DNA of 63,368 nt, filler included. It is 4 parts of 4 records of this genome, joined end to end, with 100 filler letters (N's around TTAATTAATTAA, not from the genome) between each part and the next. Parts side by side here need not be neighbours in the genome. Positions count along the whole stretch, not along the records: positions 1 to 16,174 come from SRR22947725_1765; 3 more parts are not named here. The stretch is one strand, 5' to 3'. The position numbers and the translations under genes were made by a program. Positions within the stretch are counted from its first letter, which is position 1, and every line of letters starts with the position of its first letter. A model generated the notes under the pieces. That model did not search any database and was not told the DNA's origin. It saw only the letters and a program-made list of their open reading frames with translations. Positions 6,382-20,283 of the stretch are shown piece by piece.

Positions 6382-7404
6382 TTATGTCAGATCATCCTCG
6401 TCCCCGCTCAGCTCACCTGCACTCGACATCTTCCTCTTGGCTCGCAGCAGCATCTCCGTCTTGAACCCATCAAGCCTCGTCAGCGAATCAAAGTCGGCCA
6501 CCGCCCCCGTGAACAGGTCGACGTCCCCGTCCTCCATCGCCCGCGCACAGCTCTCCGCCAATATTGCCTCCCGGCTCTTGTCGAAGTTAAAGTCCACGTC
6601 TTTGTACTCCTCGATCTTGTCCAGCACAACATCAGGACGACTGGAGCACAGCAGACACAGACACGCCAAGAGCAAGTGACCTTTTGCCGAAAACTTGAGC
6701 AAGTTGTTATCAACGCTTGCTCTGGCCACCTGCTCGTAGATACGGACCGCCTTCCCGTAGTCGCCCCCGAGCGCACTGTATTGCGCCACCTTCAACATGC
6801 ACTTGTTGCTCTCCGCCGTCGAGTGATCCGTGTAGAACAAGTCAGCCGCCTGCTCATAAAACATGATCACCGAACTCCTGTCCACCTGCGCATCCGGGCC
6901 GTCCGAGCCCCCCGACGCGCTCTGAGCCTCGGCCTCCTTCTCCAGCTGCTCTGCAATCTCCCGCAGCTGCCTCGCCGCCATCCCCAACCTCCCCATCTCC
7001 GTGTACAAACTCACCGCCTGCTCCAGCGACGAGATTGCCTTCTTCCGCATCTTGCTCACATCCTTCTCGCTCGGCTTACCTCCCCGTTCAGAATCATCGA
7101 CCGACGGCCCACCGGAAGGGCCCGCCGCCTGGGCGCCTCCAATCTTCTGGTACGCCTTGGCCGCCTCAACGTACGCCGACGCGGCATCGTGCTTACTCTC
7201 GAGCTTTATGGCCACCTCTGCCAGCTTGGTATACGTCTCACCAGCCTCCTTCCACAACTTGCCGAGCTTGAACTGGTTTGCAGCCTGCTCGTAGAGCTCG
7301 CTGGCGTCCTCGTACTTGTTCCCAAACAGATTCCAGCCCAGCAACTTTCTATCAGCCTGGGAAGCCAAGCCCCGGGCTTTGGAGGCGTACGCTGACGGCA
7401 TCAC
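6382..7404 (-). CDS. alpha-soluble NSF attachment protein (alpha-SNAP)
   Basis: KYEDASELYEQAANQFK, GRLGMAAR and NNLLKFSAK motifs; C-terminal EDDLT. Confidence 0.92.
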   Translation of the reverse strand: MMPSAYASKARGLASQADRKLLGWNLFGNKYEDASELYEQAANQFKLGKLWKEAGETYTKLAEVAIKLESKHDAASAYVEAAKAYQKIGGAQAAGPSGGPSVDDSERGGKPSEKDVSKMRKKAISSLEQAVSLYTEMGRLGMAARQLREIAEQLEKEAEAQSASGGSDGPDAQVDRSSVIMFYEQAADLFYTDHSTAESNKCMLKVAQYSALGGDYGKAVRIYEQVARASVDNNLLKFSAKGHLLLACLCLLCSSRPDVVLDKIEEYKDVDFNFDKSREAILAESCARAMEDGDVDLFTGAVADFDSLTRLDGFKTEMLLRAKRKMSSAGELSGDEDDLT

Positions 7405-7554
7405 CGCTCGTTTTAAGCGTACAGTGTTCTACGGGTCCCTCTTCGGTGCGCTTCGATCGTCGACGGCGTGGTAAATCGACAACAACAAAACTGCGAATTT
7501 TCTTTCTGCCGTTGTAGAGCCTCTGTTGCGCGTGTACACGCTCTCCCCGCTGCT

Positions 7555-9470
7555 ATGAATGATCTACTGGGATTGGTGAAGGTGCGTTGGCGCGTTGGCG
7601 TCTTTCAGGGAGCGTGACGGCCGGGTCGAAGTCGACCAATTCCGTTTCCGGTCGATCTCTCCACCTCCCTCGGCGAGGCGTCGTAGATCTGTCCGGCCCG
7701 GCCCGGCGGCCCGATCCGTCCGACCGCGCTCGACTCGTGCGAAATACCTATCACACAGCCGCTGCTTCTGCCATGTCTGGATACCGTAGGATGGGTCTGG
7801 CTCGCAGCGCGCGCCGCAGCCTGCCCCGTCTCGCTCAGCCGAGCCGGCCGCCCCGGCGCCGACGACCGCCAAATCGACGGGATTTTTCAAATCGTTGTCC
7901 ATCAAGAACTCCAAGACACCGGTGGATATTGAAGCACCAATGGATTCGAAAAACGCCTCGGACATGGACCAGTTTTACGCGCAGGTGTCCGTGATCAAGG
8001 CCCTGATGGCCGACATCAAAGACTTGCAAGTCAGGCTGGAGGCGAACAACGAGCGGACCAAGACGGCAGTGCGAACTGCACAGGTGCACGAGCTGAGGGA
8101 AAAGATGCAACAGGATGCCAACACGATCAGCAAGGAGGCGGAACAGATCAAGAGCTATCTGAAGCAGCTGGACGCGGAAAACGCGGCGGCGATGAAGAAA
8201 AAGGGGCAGGGCAAAGGGACGGCGTCGGAGCGCACGCGTACTGCAGTGACAGGTGCCCTTAAAAAGAAGTTGAAAGAGTCGATGGACGAGTTCCAAGAGC
8301 TGCGCGAGCGGCTCATGGCCGACTACAGGGAGACGGTGGAGAGGCGCGTGTACACAGTGACCGGGGAGCACGCGAGCGAGGAGCAAATTGACAATATGAT
8401 TGACGAAGGGGAGGGAGAGATGATATTCCAAAAGGCAATCATGGAGCAAGGCAGGGGCTATGTCATGGACACGGTGGCAGAACTCCGCGAGCGCCGGGAT
8501 GCGGTGCTTGAGCTCGAGAGGAGCCTGTTGGAGTTGCACCAGGTGTTCTTGGATATGGCGGTCTTGGTCGAGGCGCAGGGGCAGATGATTGATAATATCG
8601 AGAACCAGGTATGGTGTTGTCTCTCCCTGCTTTGTATGCCCCGGCGTCTGATTCGGAACACCCTGTTGTTGTTTGTTGCTGTTTGTCGCTTGAGGCCAAG
8701 CCCTCCACACGCCCATCATTCTTGTTTTGAGATGTCCGCGTTATTCTCGCTGCGAGTATGACGACATCAAGCCCACTGATTTTTTTGTCTGATGCTATTG
8801 TTTCTCGTTGCCCCCCGAACACGTTAGGTCGCGAAGAGCGCCGAGCACGTCAAGGGCGGCGTGGCCCACCTCGAGGCCGCCAAAGTTTCCCAACGGAAAA
8901 CGCGCAAGTGGATGTGCTGCGGCATCGTCCTTGGGCTCATTATCATTATTGCTGTCGTTCTTGCGTCAGTCGGCGCCTCGACTGGGTTCTAACGACCTCG
9001 TGCCGTTGTTTCTCGTTTCTCGATTCTCGTTTCTGATCTGCGTCAAAGTTTGGCGTAGCGTCAAGCCCACCCATAGGATTTGGCTCGTCTACATTGTATC
9101 GTCGACTGTTATTAGATCATCGTGAATCGCATTGCGCGTCGTCGGACGCTCGCCGTGCGATCCCACAAGCCCACTAAAAAAGCCCACGAAGAAACCAACC
9201 GTTCGTTCGTTCGTTCGATCGAACAAACCCACAATCAACATGCACTCTCCCACGCATTCTTGGAGCCATCCTGTTCCCTCGTGACACTCAAACCCTCGCA
9301 CATGCGCACAGATCAATGCCTCCTTGGCCCAAGTCGAAACCGGGGTGACCCACCTGGCCGCCGCCAAGCAGCACCAAAAGCGCTCGAGAAAGATGATTTG
9401 TTGCGCGTTGATCATGATTCTTTTGGCGGGAATCGCGGTCGCCATTATCCTTGCGATCACATTGAAATAG
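7555..9470 (+). CDS. Plasma-membrane syntaxin (SYP1/Qa-SNARE); exons 7555-7581 and 7790-8608, then alternative last exon 8828-8992 or 9312-9470
   Basis: MNDLL N-peptide, Habc domain, SNARE motif ELERSLLELHQVFLDMAVLVEAQGQMIDNIENQ. GT-AG introns are in frame, and both last exons encode the SNARE C-terminal end plus a TMD. Confidence 0.88.
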
Positions 9471-9489
9471 TGAACCAGCGATATGATAC

Positions 9490-10860
9490 TTAAAAGACAA
9501 CCGGTTTTGCCAAATGGCGGCACAGAAACCCCCAAATCTTGTCGGCCACCGCCCGCGGCTGATCTTCGTGGATCGCGTGTCCCGCCCGGGGCACGACCGC
9601 CATCTGAAACTTGCCCTGCATCTGCGCGATCGTGAGTGTCTTATCGAGACGGTCGTGTCCCGCTAATAGAAGCAACTTTGGTGCACTGACCTGAAGAAAT
9701 GCCTGCGACAGCCCCGTGAACCAACCGATCCAAAACGGCTCTGTCCGCTCCAGCGCCACGCGCCACACATATTTGTAGGGTGGCTTGGCACTCGACGGGG
9801 ATTTCATTGACCCGTCGTGTCGCTTCTCTTCCACGCCGCTCCTTCTCCCCGCCTCCTTCTCCTTCTCCTCGTGTGGCTTGGTTTCCTCGACGATGCTCGG
9901 GTACCTTGGGATGGGCGGCGGCGGCCCCATCGCTCCCAACTTGCTCGTCTTGCTTGCCGTCTTCTTCGCGATCGCACTCGCCATTGCAGTCGTCGTGGGG
10001 GGCGACTGAGACTGAGACTGGCTCCCGCCCACGGCCGACCCGCCCACGACGGGCACGACGGGCACGACGGGCCCGGCCGTCGCCTCAACAAGCATCCCCG
10101 GAACGGAAATCTCCGCACTTTCCCGCCGCCGCGCCGTGCCGCTCGACACCGCCCACTCGACAGCATCCTCTACGCTATAAAACCCCTTGGGACGTATCGC
10201 CAAAATTGCCGCCATGCTCTTCAACGCTTCCATCGCCGTCCCCTCCACCACGTCAATCGCAACCAACCCGACGACCCTCGACGCCAACGCACTGCCGGCC
10301 ATTGAAGCGAGCTTGATCGCCACGGCCGCTCCCATGGACCACCCAACCAGCACCACATCCCCGAACCGATGCGCCAAGTGCGTCACGTACAGCGCCTCGA
10401 CGTCAAGGAGCAACGTCTCAATCGAAAGGTCTGTCTCGTCGTCTGCAGTCGTCGCTCCGTGCCCCCGCATATCTGGCGCCACCACGACCACGTTTGACGT
10501 GCGCAACGGCGATGATGGCAATGACGATGATGGCAATGACGATGACGGCGATGACGGCGATGACGGCGGTGACGACGTCGAGCACACGCTGTCATCACCG
10601 TCTCGTGACGACGAGAGCAGGGCATCCGCCAGGGGCGCAAACGTCAGCCCACTATAGCCTGCCCCGTGGATGCATAAAACGAGGAGTGGACGCTGTGTCT
10701 CGCTCTCTTCACGCGCGCGACCGCGCTCCCCCTCCTCTCGGGCCCCGTCCAACCCGTCCCGGCTGAACTCGTGCAGATGCACCGTGCAGTGATTTGAAAC
10801 TCCTGGCGCCCCCCCTCGGAGCGCCAAATCCACATCCCGCGCTCGATACCGCGTGCACAT
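9490..10860 (-). CDS. PPME1: Protein phosphatase methylesterase 1 (alpha/beta hydrolase)
   Basis: HGAGYSGLTF, GWSMG nucleophile, DVVEGTA, DRLDKTLTIAQMQGKFQ and GHAIHED. The start codon is uncertain. Confidence 0.88.
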   Translation of the reverse strand: MCTRYRARDVDLALRGGAPGVSNHCTVHLHEFSRDGLDGAREEGERGRAREESETQRPLLVLCIHGAGYSGLTFAPLADALLSSSRDGDDSVCSTSSPPSSPSSPSSSLPSSSLPSSPLRTSNVVVVAPDMRGHGATTADDETDLSIETLLLDVEALYVTHLAHRFGDVVLVGWSMGAAVAIKLASMAGSALASRVVGLVAIDVVEGTAMEALKSMAAILAIRPKGFYSVEDAVEWAVSSGTARRRESAEISVPGMLVEATAGPVVPVVPVVGGSAVGGSQSQSQSPPTTTAMASAIAKKTASKTSKLGAMGPPPPIPRYPSIVEETKPHEEKEKEAGRRSGVEEKRHDGSMKSPSSAKPPYKYVWRVALERTEPFWIGWFTGLSQAFLQVSAPKLLLLAGHDRLDKTLTIAQMQGKFQMAVVPRAGHAIHEDQPRAVADKIWGFLCRHLAKPVVF

Positions 10861-10949
10861 CAGCAAATGTACTACAACAAAAAACAAAACCGTCCCGATA
10901 CGTGACCGAAACGAATGACGAGATACGTATCTCTTGTACAACGATTTTT

Positions 10950-11936
10950 TCAAAGCGCAAACTTTCCATCGTGTCCGACCGACCCCCCGCCCACGCCCAA
11001 CCCGGTCACAGCATACACCCCACCACCGCCACCCGCCTTGTCCACCCTGCTCGTCACGAACAACACGTCCATCCCCTTTCCGCCAAAATTGCAGGACGTC
11101 GGACGCGAATACCCCACCTCAACCTCTCGAACCACCGCCCCCGAGCTCCCATCCACGCAGCGCACAAGCCCACTCTCGCCCACCGCCACCCACAGGTTGC
11201 CGGCATCGTCCAACGCCATCCCGTCCGGCACGTTCGCGTGCTTCGTCTCCGTCTGGTGCACCAGGCGGTGCGACGACGACGAAGAGGACGACGAAGAGGA
11301 CGACGACGACGACGTGTCCGGCACCCCGTGCTCGTCCGTCGCGTACGCCCGGACGCTCTCGTCCCTCGAGTCCACGATGATACACTCCCCATTCCTCCAC
11401 ACGATCCCGTTGGGACACCCGATGCCGAGGGGAGCGGGCGTGATGTCCTTGAACGCCCGCGTCCCGGCGTCAAACACGCACAGCGATCCCATGGGGCCCG
11501 TCCGCCACGACAGGCTGAGGTGGCCGACGACGAGATGCGTGCCGTCCGGCGTGACTTTGCCATCGTTGAATCGAGCGCCCGCGTCCGTCGCGCCGATGCA
11601 GTCGGGGAGCGTGGCAAGAACGCTCGAGGACTGCGACTCGAGGTCGACCAGCCGGAGATGCCGGCTCGTGCCGACCAACAGCTTCGACGGGTCGCTCGTC
11701 AGGAAGGCGCAGGACGCCGGCTCGCCGTCCGGGCAGACGAACGCGATGCGAACCACCGGAGATGGCGCCGGAGCCCCCGTCACGGCGTCAGAGACGACGT
11801 CAGAGACGGCGTCGATGGCGTACACCGTTGATTTGGAAATGTCCACAAAATACAGGCGATCGAGGCGCTCGTCGTAGATCGGACCCTCGCCCAGCTCGCA
11901 GTGGAGGTCCCCCGTGATACAGACAGACCGCGTCAT
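10950..11936 (-). CDS. SMP-30/gluconolactonase (regucalcin) family
   Basis: ELGEGPIYD, RFNDGK, PNGIVW, PDGMALD and PTSCNFGG motifs. Confidence 0.88.
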   Translation of the reverse strand: MTRSVCITGDLHCELGEGPIYDERLDRLYFVDISKSTVYAIDAVSDVVSDAVTGAPAPSPVVRIAFVCPDGEPASCAFLTSDPSKLLVGTSRHLRLVDLESQSSSVLATLPDCIGATDAGARFNDGKVTPDGTHLVVGHLSLSWRTGPMGSLCVFDAGTRAFKDITPAPLGIGCPNGIVWRNGECIIVDSRDESVRAYATDEHGVPDTSSSSSSSSSSSSSSHRLVHQTETKHANVPDGMALDDAGNLWVAVGESGLVRCVDGSSGAVVREVEVGYSRPTSCNFGGKGMDVLFVTSRVDKAGGGGGVYAVTGLGVGGGSVGHDGKFAL

Positions 11937-16274: not shown

Positions 16275-16302
16275 AGATCGGGTATCGCTTCCGTTTCTAA
16301 AA

Positions 16303-17265
16303 CTAAATTTGGTCAATAATTGCCTGGGCCGCATCCCAACCGGACATTGCGGCATTTTCAATTCGTTCGCCTCCAAAACTGTCTCCCGCTAGGCTCAACC
16401 GGTCCCAGGCGGATGTGTATTGAGTGGCTCCAAAGGTAACCAATGGCTTGGCAAAGCCCCAACGGTGGCATTTCCATTCAGTAATCTTGGCATTGAGACA
16501 CTCTTCTGCGGCGGCCACTAATAAAGGTCCGCGTTCTTCATCAGGAGCGTCCCAAAATTGTTGGGAGTAAGAATCGACTGCATGAACAGTGCAGGCAGGA
16601 ATCGGAGAAGTTCCCTTCATGTGGTTATCTGAAATCCAATCAATTTCCGTTGTCGGGTGAGTAATTGTTCCTGGGGAAGAAAGGGAGGAGGGACGGTCCA
16701 AAATTCCCAACAGGGCAAGACAGCGGGTGTAACGTACTGCTTCTAATTGATCCATTACCTTTGATTCTAATTCAAATTGGCTTCTTTGAAAAAGTTCCAG
16801 CATTTGAGGCACGGGAAGGGTGAGTACTAAATGATCTGCAAATAATTTTCGGTCCCCCCCCCCCTTTTCATTAATCTGCCATTCTTCATCAAAGAAAATA
16901 GAATCAACAAAAAATTCTTTTTGAAAAGAAAAAGACCTCGCCAAAGCCTTCGCAGGAGCAGTCATACCATTTACACCACGGTATCGAATACTTTTGGGAA
17001 TATCTTCTCTCCCTGCAATTGAATCATACCACGGAACTACTGCGTCCATGGATTGCCATTTTGTAAGCAATTCCTTCATTCTAGAATCCCGCACGGTGAA
17101 AAATTGTGCACCATGATCAATTCGAGCCCCAGCCATCCTCCTGGTCGACATCCTGCCACCCACACCGCGGCCTTTTTCAACCAAAACAACATCATGCCCC
17201 TGTTCCGCTAAGCGATACGCACACACACAACCGGAAATCCCGGCACCCACAACAACGACTTTCAT
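16303..17265 (-). CDS. Renalase-like NAD/FAD-dependent oxidoreductase
   Basis: GAGISG, EKGRGVGGRMSTRR, DHGAQFFT, HRW and AGD..GG.IE.A..SG motifs. Confidence 0.88.
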   Translation of the reverse strand: MKVVVVGAGISGCVCAYRLAEQGHDVVLVEKGRGVGGRMSTRRMAGARIDHGAQFFTVRDSRMKELLTKWQSMDAVVPWYDSIAGREDIPKSIRYRGVNGMTAPAKALARSFSFQKEFFVDSIFFDEEWQINEKGGGDRKLFADHLVLTLPVPQMLELFQRSQFELESKVMDQLEAVRYTRCLALLGILDRPSSLSSPGTITHPTTEIDWISDNHMKGTSPIPACTVHAVDSYSQQFWDAPDEERGPLLVAAAEECLNAKITEWKCHRWGFAKPLVTFGATQYTSAWDRLSLAGDSFGGERIENAAMSGWDAAQAIIDQI

Positions 17266-17359
17266 ATAATTAGAAAACTTTTAAGGATACTTTACATTAT
17301 AAATTAAAAAGATAAGAATTATTCTACATCCCAGGCAAACCAGCACAAACTCAATACAA

Positions 17360-18259
17360 ATGAAAAATACTTCCGAAGATTATACGTTCATTGTAAATTC
17401 ACTGAAAGGACAACTCCCCAGTCTTCCCTTGGTCATGGATGAATTAATGACGATTATCTCGGACCCTAATGTCGCTCTTTACGCAATCAAAGACATCATT
17501 AAAATGGATCCCTCTATTTACTCACAAACCCTTAAGGTGGTAAACACCGTACAATACCGGGGTGAGGGAGAGTCCAGAATTACCAGCCTTGATGATGCCA
17601 TGCAAAGACTGGGATTGGAGAAAGTAAAACGGATTGCCTTGAACACCTCTGTCCTCACGCTTTTCAGTGGTGCAGAATTTACCAATAATTTTAGTCCCGA
17701 GACCCTGTGGACTCATAGTGTGGGTGTGGCGGTTGCAAGTGCAAGTCTCGCAGATTTTCTCCACTTTCCAATGTCTGACCAGGCATATTCCTGCGGACTG
17801 ATTCACGATATCGGAAAACTGGCGAAGTTAAAATACGATCAGCAAAATTTTTGTGAGGAATTAAATAAGGCGAATGAACTAGGACTGAGTAATTTTCATA
17901 CCGAAGTGACCCATCAAAAAATTAGACATGATCTATTGGGGGCCCAAATCGCAAATTCATGGGGAATTTCTCCCCTCGTTGAAGCAGTTGCCAGATGGCA
18001 CCACGAGGAGGACCGTTCCAAGCGAACCGAGGTGGAGGATCCTGACATTCACAAATTGATTGATGTGGTTCAGTTTTCAAATTCTCTGATTAAAGAAATC
18101 AAATTTGGAAACAGCGGACATTCTCAAAAAGAAGTGCCCTCTCCATCAATCATGAGAAGATTGAAAATCAGTGAGGAAGGTCTCGATGAATTTGAGGAAA
18201 AATTAAAAAATGAATTGGAAACAGAAAAGGAACATATTTCACTTTTGAATAGAAAGTGA
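17360..18259 (+). CDS. Stand-alone HDOD domain protein
   Basis: LPSLP, LWTHS, GLIHDIGKL and WHHE motifs. Confidence 0.85.
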   Translation: MKNTSEDYTFIVNSLKGQLPSLPLVMDELMTIISDPNVALYAIKDIIKMDPSIYSQTLKVVNTVQYRGEGESRITSLDDAMQRLGLEKVKRIALNTSVLTLFSGAEFTNNFSPETLWTHSVGVAVASASLADFLHFPMSDQAYSCGLIHDIGKLAKLKYDQQNFCEELNKANELGLSNFHTEVTHQKIRHDLLGAQIANSWGISPLVEAVARWHHEEDRSKRTEVEDPDIHKLIDVVQFSNSLIKEIKFGNSGHSQKEVPSPSIMRRLKISEEGLDEFEEKLKNELETEKEHISLLNRK

Positions 18260-18281
18260 AGCTTGATTCCTTGGGTTTATC

Positions 18282-18728
18282 CTACGAACTTTCCAGAAGA
18301 TCCGCAAAACTGAGCATGTATTCTACCACATGTTCCCGTCGATTTCTTTCTAAGTAACGAAAGCCGCCATTTAAATTCCCCAAAACCTTCCGATCGGATA
18401 AATTTTCTAATTGAACGATATCGGAGTGCGACAAACCATGTTTTTCAATAAAAAGGAAAATGTCATCCACCTTGTTACCCGTGCACGAGCAGTAATCAAT
18501 TGCATGCTCTGACCACTCGTCCAACTGAAAATCCACCGATTCCACAATTTCTAGACTGCTCATCCCAGTTAGAGTTTGGATAAGGTGCCCGGCGTTACAC
18601 TGGCCCATATGCCCCCATTGGTATTGGACATCTTCCTGGTCGAGTCGCTTAGAAGTTTCACGAAGGGCATCAATTAAAAAGCGATTAGTGAAAGACTTGT
18701 TAAATGTGTGGGTGCTTGTGTTTTTCAT
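18282..18728 (-). CDS. Conserved hypothetical protein
   Basis: Clean ORF with a YQWGHMGQCNAGHL motif; no family recognised. Confidence 0.7.
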   Translation of the reverse strand: MKNTSTHTFNKSFTNRFLIDALRETSKRLDQEDVQYQWGHMGQCNAGHLIQTLTGMSSLEIVESVDFQLDEWSEHAIDYCSCTGNKVDDIFLFIEKHGLSHSDIVQLENLSDRKVLGNLNGGFRYLERNRREHVVEYMLSFADLLESS

Positions 18729-18946
18729 CAATAATAATGGTTGTAGATAGTAATAAAAACTAAGTTTTCAGAAATTTCAAACTTGATCGATTTACATTTC
18801 AGGTTCGAAACTTGGATTTAGATGATACAATCTTTTATTCTAACTTGGTGCAAAATGGGAATAGTATATTTTATAGTTCAGTTCAGAAATATCCAACTTT
18901 GAAGTACTAGATATTTAACAACACCCCGCTCCCGCTCATTTCCATT

Positions 18947-19666
18947 ATGATTCAATTTAAATTCAGACCCTCTCACGAACGCGGTGCACGCGACCATGGT
19001 TGGCTTCAGGCACGATTTTCATTTTCTTTCTCGGATTATTACGACCCCGAACATTCCGGTTTTCATTCCCTTGTGGTAATGAATAACGATATAATACAAC
19101 CCCAAGGAGGATTTGGTAATCACCCCCATGATAACGCCGAAATTTTCACCTATGTAATTTCAGGTGAACTCGAACATAGGGACAGTATGGGAAATGGCTC
19201 GGTTATTAAACCCGGAGATTTACAATACATGAGTGCCGGAGACGGGGTTCATCATAGCGAGTTCAATCCATCCGATTCGGAAAAAGTTGAGCTTTATCAG
19301 ATTTGGATGCTACCCAATCAAAAAGGTGGCCAACCCATTTACGAGGAAAAAAAACTCGGGAAAGACCAGGTGAAGAATGAGGTCAAAATTTTATTCTCCG
19401 ATGATGGGCGTGAAGGTTCCACCCCCATTCGACAAAATGCCACCTTTGGATTTGGTCAACTTGAAGAGGGTCATTCCGTCTTACTGCAACCGGATCAGGA
19501 TAAACCAAATGCGTGGATTCAGGTGATCAACGGTTCTTTGACCCTGGGAGATTTTCAACTTGGTCAAGCCGATGGCCTGGGTATTGAAAAGATCGATTAT
19601 TCCCTCCCTATAAAGGCCGAACAAAATTGTAAATTTTTCATCTTCCGATTATCTGAAAGTGAATGA
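18947..19666 (+). CDS. Pirin family protein (YhhW-like)
   Basis: RG..DHGWL, FSFSDYYDP, HPHDNAEI and MSAGDGVHHSE motifs. Confidence 0.92.
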   Translation: MIQFKFRPSHERGARDHGWLQARFSFSFSDYYDPEHSGFHSLVVMNNDIIQPQGGFGNHPHDNAEIFTYVISGELEHRDSMGNGSVIKPGDLQYMSAGDGVHHSEFNPSDSEKVELYQIWMLPNQKGGQPIYEEKKLGKDQVKNEVKILFSDDGREGSTPIRQNATFGFGQLEEGHSVLLQPDQDKPNAWIQVINGSLTLGDFQLGQADGLGIEKIDYSLPIKAEQNCKFFIFRLSESE

Positions 19667-20283
19667 ACTCCTTCACCGAAGAACTTTTTAGGGAAAGTAA
19701 GATGGGATACGATCTACCCGATGCAGAAATTGAATATTTTCCTGAATTTTTCTCGCGGGAAAAGTCTCTCAATTTCCTTCCCCAATTACTTGATACTATT
19801 AAATGGAAGCAAAACACTATTAAGATGTATGGAAAGGAAAACCCGGTTCCCCGGTTGGAGGCCTGGTATGGTGACCCAGGCAAAAGCTATGCCTATTCCG
19901 GCATTCGCATGGAGCCTACTCCATGGACTGATGAACTGAGGGAAATTAAACGATCGATCGAGGCCGAAGTAGAGATCTCCTTTAATTCGGTCTTAATTAA
20001 TTATTACCGGGATGGTCAGGACCGGGTGGCGTGGCACAGTGATGATGAAAAAGAACTCGGAAAAAACCCGGTAATCGGCTCGGTCAGTTTTGGAGCGGAG
20101 CGCACGTTTAAACTGCGGCACAAGCGATACAAGGAGAATAACCTCAAGCAAAGCATTGTTCTTAAAAACGGTAGTTTTTTACTAATGAAAGGGGCGACTC
20201 AGCACCATTGGATGCATGAAATCCCTCGAACTGCCAAACCCATTGGGCCAAGAATTAATCTTACCTTCCGGGTAATTAAATAA
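19663..20283 (+). CDS. AlkB-family 2OG-Fe(II) dioxygenase (ALKBH2/3-like)
   Basis: PRLEAWYG, NYYRDGQD, WHSDDE, H.IP and RINLTFR motifs. Confidence 0.92.
   Translation: MNSFTEELFRESKMGYDLPDAEIEYFPEFFSREKSLNFLPQLLDTIKWKQNTIKMYGKENPVPRLEAWYGDPGKSYAYSGIRMEPTPWTDELREIKRSIEAEVEISFNSVLINYYRDGQDRVAWHSDDEKELGKNPVIGSVSFGAERTFKLRHKRYKENNLKQSIVLKNGSFLLMKGATQHHWMHEIPRTAKPIGPRINLTFRVIK

Follow-up and report, generated by a model that had tools for sequence, protein, structure and literature searches.

The window analyzed in this study is a stretch of 63,368 nucleotides that joins parts of four records of one genome, with its first 16,174 positions coming from the record SRR22947725_1765. Positions 7555-9470 of its plus strand hold a syntaxin gene, where coding exons 1 and 2 are followed by one of two terminal exons, A or B. 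The comparison of this locus with related loci, transcripts, and proteins indicated that one gene of the SYP1/syntaxin-1 type probably gives rise to two tail-anchored proteins through alternative terminal exons. Support for this reading is good in the clade, and it likely holds for the organism sampled here as well.

Coding exon 1 (7555-7581, 27 nt) encodes the peptide MNDLLGLVK and is followed by a donor GT at 7582. The proteins P0004 and P0135 both start with this peptide joined to DGSGS, consistent with the removal of intron 1 (7582-7789, 208 nt, GT..AG). RNA data were available from four runs (X1, X2, X3, and X7) as assembled contigs only, which can show neither absence nor RNA ends. Intron 1 was skipped in contigs of two of the four, X1 and X3 (joint 7579>7788, cut +2, GT..AG), and X1 had zero cover in the bins 7631-7784. 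The shared exon 2 (7790-8608) supplies the N-terminal region together with the three-helix Habc (Syntaxin) domain and the start of the SNARE motif up to ...IDNIENQ, directly after which lies the shared donor, with its GT at 8609-8610.

This donor joins in phase 0 to exon A and to exon B alike. For isoform A, the proximal intron (8609-8827, 219 nt, GT..AG) is removed, and exon A (8828-8992, acceptor AG at 8826-8827) adds 54 amino acids and a TAA stop codon. Its product completes the SNARE helix, continues with a basic linker that contains a Trp residue, a CC pair, and a membrane anchor, and ends in ...SVGASTGF. For isoform B, a long intron (8609-9311, 703 nt, GT..AG) would be removed, which contains exon A together with its probable polyadenylation (poly(A)) site. 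Exon B (9312-9470, acceptor AG at 9310-9311) encodes 52 amino acids and a TAG stop codon. Its product completes the SNARE helix in an alternative way and adds a basic linker in which Met replaces the Trp, a CC pair, and a more hydrophobic anchor ending in ...AITLK. The resulting isoforms A and B are 336 and 334 amino acids long, respectively. The original prediction had placed the donor GT at 8609 and the two phase-0 exons at 8828-8992 and 9312-9470, and both the coordinates and the reading were exact. No in-frame ATG was found between the upstream stop codon and the exon start for either exon A or exon B, in the window or in three relatives, and each exon would thus be translatable only once spliced.

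The product of exon 2 matched the Pfam family Syntaxin (PF00804, Habc) over its residues 7-167 with an E-value of 4.3e-45, and the same family scored 155.6 bits in P0135. With the Pfam family SNARE (PF05739, cut-off 26.8 bits), exon A alone gave a match of 9.8e-11, and exon B alone scored 26.7 bits, just below the cut-off. The full A isoform P0135 scored 54.4 bits over profile positions 1-53 of 53, and the B isoform P0015 from Picochlorum oklahomense scored 39.6 bits over positions 1-52 of 53. The zero-layer Gln is presumably the one within ...VEAQGQMID..., if the register of syntaxin 1A is applied.

A total of 782 proteins matched the shared exon at E <=1e-5. The nearest named matches were SYP1/syntaxin-1-type Qa-SNAREs of the Chlorellales genera Parachlorella, Micractinium, and Chlorella (60-67% identity), followed by other green algae and by the SYP12 and SYP13 proteins of land plants. 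Names among the matches included "Qa-SNARE, Sso1/Syntaxin1-type" in Volvox, syntaxin-131/132/121/124/125-like, and the JGI label "syntaxin 1B/2/3". A group at 79-82% identity included transcripts and gene models of P. oklahomense, Picochlorum sp. SENEW3, Picochlorum sp. BPE23, and P. renovo, and exon 2 was 100% identical to P0003 and P0004. Both P0004 and P0135 are transcript-derived and identical to the window over the entire shared exon. The gene is assigned by these relatives to the SYP1/syntaxin-1-type Qa-SNAREs and, since the 79-82% group carries Picochlorum names, to a Picochlorum-type green picoalga. An algal SYP1 syntaxin had been proposed from the window, and the Syntaxin and SNARE domains as well as the named relatives bear this out.

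Conservation of the two terminal exons

A set of 80 related metagenome loci was compared with the window. Both exons were present downstream of the shared exon in five of the loci (L002, L003, L004, L005, and L007), which represent three distinct lineages since L003, L004, and L005 are identical there. The shared exon of these lineages was 93-94% or 82% identical to that of the window, and wherever the downstream DNA extended far enough, which was the case for these three, both exon A and exon B were intact. The acceptors, phase 0, and stop codons were kept in every lineage with both exons, including the exon B acceptor AG (9310-9311) in L002, L003, and L007, and the flanking intron was unrecognizable. 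Exon B was 96% identical to the window in L002-L005 and 84% identical in L007, and the gap between exons A and B ranged from 151 to 319 nt across the lineages. The duplicated terminal exons of the original prediction therefore share one donor and are both kept as coding sequence in relatives.

Other loci carried part of this arrangement. The contigs of L001 and L006 end in the intron or just past it, with L006 reaching the start of an A-type exon. In L008-L010 (61-69% identity), the same intron position and an A-type exon were found, and the contigs stop 54-77 nt later. Loci with identities of 56% or less had no intron at this point and a single C-terminal end.

The proportions of synonymous (pS) and non-synonymous (pN) differences and the ratio of the non-synonymous to the synonymous rate (dN/dS) were calculated between the window and L002/L003. 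The shared exon 2 had a pS of 0.66, a pN of 0.045-0.047, and a dN/dS of 0.029-0.031. The corresponding values were 0.66-0.71, 0.10-0.11, and 0.057-0.066 for exon A, and 0.69, 0.025-0.034, and 0.014-0.018 for exon B, where 26 synonymous and three to four non-synonymous changes were counted. Two non-coding stretches from the same comparison had identities of 0.46-0.53 and were unalignable. With synonymous sites close to saturation, these values place both exon A and exon B under purifying selection. Exon B as a decaying relic was ruled out for the clade as a whole, because it is the most constrained part of the gene.

Transcripts and alternative explanations

Two junctions had been predicted from the shared donor. 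The first, 8608>8828, was found in two of the four runs, which belong to two studies, with one contig each in X1 (depth 19) and X3 (depth 24.6); it was recorded as the joint 8606>8826 with a cut of +2. In addition, one transcriptome of this species contains a protein, P0135, that corresponds to all 336 residues of isoform A and ends exactly in the exon A peptide. The second, 8608>9312, was found in none of the four runs, and a B junction was observed in transcripts of P. oklahomense.

The proximal intron was also found unspliced, in contigs of X1 (8581-8855, depth 13.2) and X3 (8581-8773, depth 18.8). This retained form thus had a depth comparable to the spliced form in two runs, with intron 1 cleanly removed in X1. 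It is represented among proteins by P0004, a "complete" transcript product from MMETSP. The frame of the tail encoded by the retained intron varies between strains, and this tail is hence not conserved coding sequence.

Contigs with exon A extended past its stop codon in X1 (8826-9122, record 5), X3 (8826-9076), and X7 (8826-9022), and a contig of X2 (record 12) spans 9051-9124. With contigs of two studies stopping at 9122 and 9124, the region 8993-9124 is the probable 3' untranslated region of isoform A. The stops give a weak hint, since they are ends of contigs, that the RNA of isoform A ends near 9122, upstream of exon B. The green-algal poly(A) signal TGTAA was absent after both exons in the window, where the only similar motif was a TGTAT at 9095.

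Use of the orthologous exon B was observed in a congener. The P. oklahomense transcript products P0015 and P0127 read ...IEAQ followed by VNSSLAQVETGVTHL..., such that the shared donor is joined straight to the exon B orthologue (IEAQ to VNSSLAQ) with no exon A. The cluster of P0015 has 12 members, comprising two B forms, two A forms, one fusion, six intron read-throughs, and a 43-residue fragment; no A-form transcript product of P. oklahomense was found among them. A search with the exon B protein for longer proteins returned two of 59 candidates, both from Picochlorum. The gene models of other strains differed from one another: the models of BPE23 (P0125 and P0126) take exon A, that of P. 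renovo (P0123) takes exon B, and that of SENEW3 (P0124, 399 amino acids) fuses a truncated exon A to exon B.

In the two-isoform arrangement, transcription would start at or before about position 7493, and exons 1 and 2 would be part of every transcript, contributing the N-peptide and the Habc domain as well as the SNARE layers to about +2. From the donor at 8609, which is the only one, splicing would then proceed to either of two acceptors. Use of the proximal one (8827) would include exon A with its stop codon at 8990-8992 and an RNA end near 9122, yielding isoform A. Alternatively, exon A and its 3'-end signals would be skipped, and the distal acceptor (9311) would bring in exon B to yield isoform B. 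The choice of splice site would hence be coupled to the choice of poly(A) site, as in events of the "alternative last exon" type.

Several observations weigh against this arrangement in the species of the window. Besides the B joint missing from the contigs of all four runs, the sole contig over exon B (X2, 9212-9377) is unspliced across the acceptor; X2 also covers intron 1 unspliced and thus holds DNA or pre-mRNA. The two transcript-derived proteins of this species are isoform A and the intron-retaining form, and no B form of the species was present in a collection of 5.8 billion proteins. No single organism showed both the A and the B junction, contig ends are the source of the RNA end near 9122, and pairwise dN/dS values cannot place the constraint on the window's own branch. 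Cover at 9171-9478 was missing from X1, X3, and X7, from which absence cannot be concluded with contigs.

These observations could also be explained if exon B had recently been silenced in this species, with the gene making isoform A only while its relatives use exon B. Both the missing junction and a protein collection that holds only the A and intron-retaining forms of the species would fit, as would the pyrimidine tract, which is poor before exon B compared to that before exon A. However, exon B retains an intact frame, acceptor, and stop codon, and the 26 synonymous against three to four non-synonymous changes imply that any loss of constraint on the window's branch would need to be very recent. 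Since rare variants are also dropped from contigs, a missing joint is no proof of absence. A silent exon B is hence considered an unlikely explanation, though the strongest of the alternatives.

A second alternative places exons A and B in series, where a donor inside exon A (after ...VVLAS) would be spliced to exon B and both SNARE ends would be kept. The SENEW3 model P0124 has exactly such a structure, and each of the four lineages has a GT after the Ser codon (TCA-GTC, TCT-GTC, or TCT-GTT). However, this GT is accounted for by a conserved Val codon, the RNA contigs of X1, X3, and X7 continue unspliced through this point and the exon A stop, P0135 ends at that stop, and P0015 and P0127 are without exon A. 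The product would also bury a second SNARE half behind a truncated anchor. Serial splicing is very improbable, and the fusion in P0124 is most likely an artefact of gene prediction.

An origin of exon B from a separate transcript, be it a small gene of its own or what remains of a second syntaxin gene in tandem, is just as improbable: isoform A RNA does seem to end near 9122, before exon B, and exon B with its upstream motif copies (see below) resembles a duplicated unit, but no in-frame ATG precedes exon B in any of the four lineages, the gap between the exons is just 151-319 nt, and P. oklahomense joins exon B directly to the shared ...IEAQ donor.

Divergence and origin of the two ends

The peptides of exons A and B share 19 of 45 residues (42%, E 1e-11), in agreement with the divergence originally claimed for them. 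Position-wise comparison covered 31 aligned positions before the anchor in five A and six B sequences. Twelve positions were invariant in both classes, seven had fixed differences between A and B (positions 2, 6, 7, 9, 24, 25, and 28), and four had non-overlapping residue sets (positions 3, 5, 10, and 16), which makes 11 of the 31 positions diagnostic of the isoform. Positions 1, 4, 8, 11, 15, and 18, which would be the core layers +3 to +8 in the register of syntaxin 1A, were the same or conservatively replaced between A and B. In this register, the diagnostic differences would therefore map to the linker and the surface of the helix.

A CC pair and the same basic linker (RK..RK) were common to both ends. 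At the juxtamembrane position 28, exon A has a Trp, as do most other sequences examined, and exon B has a Met. The uncharged terminal stretch was 24-27 residues long with a mean hydropathy of 2.3-2.8 in A, and 24-25 residues long with a mean hydropathy of 3.0-3.2 in B. The B end stops right past the anchor (...ITLK), whereas the A end carries a short ...SVGAxxGF(K) tail. Both ends thus have a predicted single C-terminal membrane anchor behind a basic linker. Since the core is kept and the surface, linker, and anchor are changed, both isoforms should be able to zipper into a SNARE complex, yet they may differ in their regulators, partners, membrane domain, or turnover. The original prediction had named secretion versus cytokinesis as one possible division of labor between them.

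Phylogenies of the C-terminal exons were based on 55-56 columns and had limited resolution. The exon A sequences of the Picochlorum group formed a starred clade nested among the single C-terminal ends of the Chlorellales, and exon B formed a separate starred clade on a long branch. In the first free tree, the B clade was grouped with Coccomyxa and L013, both of which also lack the Trp. This grouping was treated as long-branch or convergent attraction. Exon B stood alone in the second tree, which included P0146 and P0148 but not the three longest rows (L011, L070, and L075). Monophyly of Picochlorum A and B was not rejected, and the constrained tree was slightly better (p-AU 0.57). These trees would fit an older duplication no better than one in the stem lineage after which exon B changed rapidly.

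A search of 1.84 billion representative proteins with exon B returned 38 matches at E <=0.001, where the only close ones were the window's own open reading frame (ORF) and a relative at 83% identity. Two short ORFs, P0146 (51%) and P0148 (46%), fell into the B clade in the tree. Their contigs match in size (5930 and 6695) those of the syntaxins P0022 (66% identity to the syntaxin of the window) and P0020 (69% identity). This hints that exon B may exist beyond the genus and may be older than the sampled genus. A search with exon A at near lengths gave four matches from eight candidates, none of which came from the contigs of P0146 or P0148.

Other Chlorellales SYP1 proteins, including those of Parachlorella, Micractinium, Chlorella, Auxenochlorella, and Prototheca, resemble isoform A in having an exon A-type end (VAKSVEYVQAG...RKWMCC), but differ from the Picochlorum gene in that one C-terminal end is annotated for each.

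In land plants, the SYP132 isoforms of Medicago truncatula were reportedly named SYP132A/C by Pan et al. in 2016. A legume SYP132 with an alternative last exon had been cited as the precedent for the algal gene, and this precedent is real. Two reports describe alpha and beta forms of Medicago SYP132 (SYP13II), a plasma-membrane Qa-SNARE, with two alternative last exons behind a shared part (PMC7145992, PMC6063945). In the same reports, the isoform-specific exon has its own acceptor, its deletion shifts splicing to the other exon, and the event goes by the name of alternative splicing as well as that of alternative polyadenylation or termination (PMC7145992, PMC6063945). The event in dicots is further linked there to mycorrhizal and rhizobial symbiosis, and the alternative splicing is stated to have arisen at the base of dicots (PMC7145992). 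The algal SYP1-type gene similarly has two terminal exons behind a shared part, each with its own acceptor. Unlike the Medicago gene, it belongs to the unicellular Picochlorum lineage, has an independent origin, and has no symbiosis context.

The predicted syntaxin-132-like isoform X2 of Cornus florida (P0122) leaves the canonical SYP132 sequence after ...DNIES, one residue before the algal junction. Its tail does not look like a SNARE, which suggests a dicot intron at nearly the same place.

The algal arrangement had been proposed as an ancestral or convergent version of the legume one, of which only the convergent version stood. Shared descent with the dicot exon pair was unsupported, given the origin reported at the base of dicots, the algae with a single C-terminal end, and the separate grouping of land-plant SYP132 ends, which fell away from both the exon A and the exon B classes in the C-terminal trees. 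The likeness to SYP132 of legumes and other dicots is thus convergent and of independent origin, because the plant event is dated to the dicot base, the loci with identities of 56% or less are single-ended without the intron, and the land-plant ends stand apart.

In animals, one report describes a choice between the A and B forms of unc-64, the syntaxin 1 of Caenorhabditis elegans, that acts through the site of an RNA-binding protein in the last intron together with intron retention (PMC4946901). The regulator is given there as CELF/UNC-75, and two anchors are likewise described for mammalian Syntaxin 2 (PMC4946901). Similar to unc-64, the algal intron before exon A was found retained, and a conserved intronic motif precedes both exons. 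In contrast to unc-64, where part of the anchor only is exchanged, the alga swaps 52-54 amino acids, among them the final third of the SNARE helix as well as the juxtamembrane linker. Among titles and abstract starts, with subscription journals largely outside the coverage, neither a published Picochlorum syntaxin nor an algal syntaxin isoform with an alternative last exon was found.

Intronic motif, neighboring genes, and significance

The motif AAGCCCAC(T) occurs on the plus strand at 8769-8776, 59 nt upstream of exon A, and three more plus-strand copies of AAGCCCAC lie between exons A and B (9063-9070, 9167-9174, and 9180-9187). Between the two exons, the only 8-mers common to the window, L003, and L007 were AAGCCCAC and AGCCCACT. 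The same two were also common to these three in the intron before exon A, together with the overlapping 8-mer CAAGCCCA, and the 250 nt after exon B had not even a common 7-mer. Eight copies of AAGCCCAC were observed in the window against 2.1 expected, a count reached in none of 100 shuffles. In mononucleotide shuffles, an 8-mer common to the three regions occurred in 172 and 57 of 20000 trials, and a 7-mer common to all six regions in none of 20000.

Among the relatives, a copy of the motif was found 53-60 nt before exon A in L002, L003, L006, and L007, with another at 83 nt in L007, and one or two copies lie between exons A and B in L002, L003, and L007. Throughout the loci L002-L007 (3.8-6.7 kb), every plus-strand AGCCCAC lies before exon A or between A and B, and their other strand has no copies. 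Elsewhere in the 371 kb of loci, plus-strand copies were found in L009 (in the same intron), L027, and L036, and seven minus-strand copies were found in six distant loci. Additionally, L008 and L009 have GCCCAC variants in the same intron. The motif is absent from intron 1 and is thus not a general feature of introns.

AAGCCCAC is consequently viewed as a candidate cis-element for the choice of splice or poly(A) site that may have been copied along with the exon. A competing RNA pairing with a docking site, as in Dscam, was rejected, as no complementary motif was found; the reverse complement GTGGGCT was missing from the plus strand of the algal 16.2 kb and of L002-L007. A more speculative extension, which we hold only tentatively, is that Picochlorum independently evolved a regulated switch of the C-terminal end, where AAGCCCAC(U) in the RNA would bind a factor that sets the ratio of A to B, and isoform B would not be redundant but a variant with a mechanistically distinct role in fusion or targeting. 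This extension draws on the absence from B of the near-universal juxtamembrane Trp and on the more hydrophobic anchor of B. P0146 and P0148, whose contigs match in size those of syntaxins at 66-69% identity, would make such a switch older than the genus. If it exists, the ratio might be set, for example, between growth and autospore formation or under a change in salinity.

Upstream of the syntaxin gene, an alpha-SNAP gene lies head to head with it on the minus strand (6382-7428; Pfam SNAP, 3.2e-82). The products of the two genes belong to one fusion machinery. About 150 nt separate the two start codons, and RNA contigs from the two genes abut at 7493-7495. The pairing was kept in L003-L007, L010, L013, L014, and L017, of which L013, L014, and L017 are relatives at 52% identity. 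Downstream, a convergent alpha/beta-hydrolase gene on the minus strand (9490-11118) has its stop codon 20 nt from that of exon B. RNA contigs of X2 and X3 have loose ends flanking 9603-9633 in this gene, which suggests that it is spliced and that the long ORF called at 9490-11118 is not its true structure.

The guanine-cytosine content of the window is 0.56-0.63, with intron-bearing algal genes, up to about 16.2 kb, and 0.39-0.48 thereafter. Positions 16275-20000 matched contig C24 of the genome G001 (2.5 Mb, among prokaryotes) at 100%. G001 encodes no syntaxin and matched only the low-GC part of the window. The window is thus composite, due either to the binning or joining of an algal contig with bacterial DNA or to chimeric assembly.

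The locus also carries a lesson for annotation, as public gene models choose exon A, choose exon B, or wrongly fuse both, and prokaryote-style calls run into the intron. Such algae have compact genomes with few introns. The exon pair offers a natural test of which SNARE residues outside the core, which juxtamembrane residues, and which features of the anchor are important. Alternative C-terminal exons of plasma-membrane syntaxins were already known from nematodes, mammals, and dicots, and the Picochlorum gene is an independent algal example of this kind of isoform switch, known from some animal and flowering-plant syntaxins. That such a pair also arose in a unicellular alga suggests that two versions of the SNARE end and anchor have been needed repeatedly, irrespective of multicellular tissues or symbiosis.

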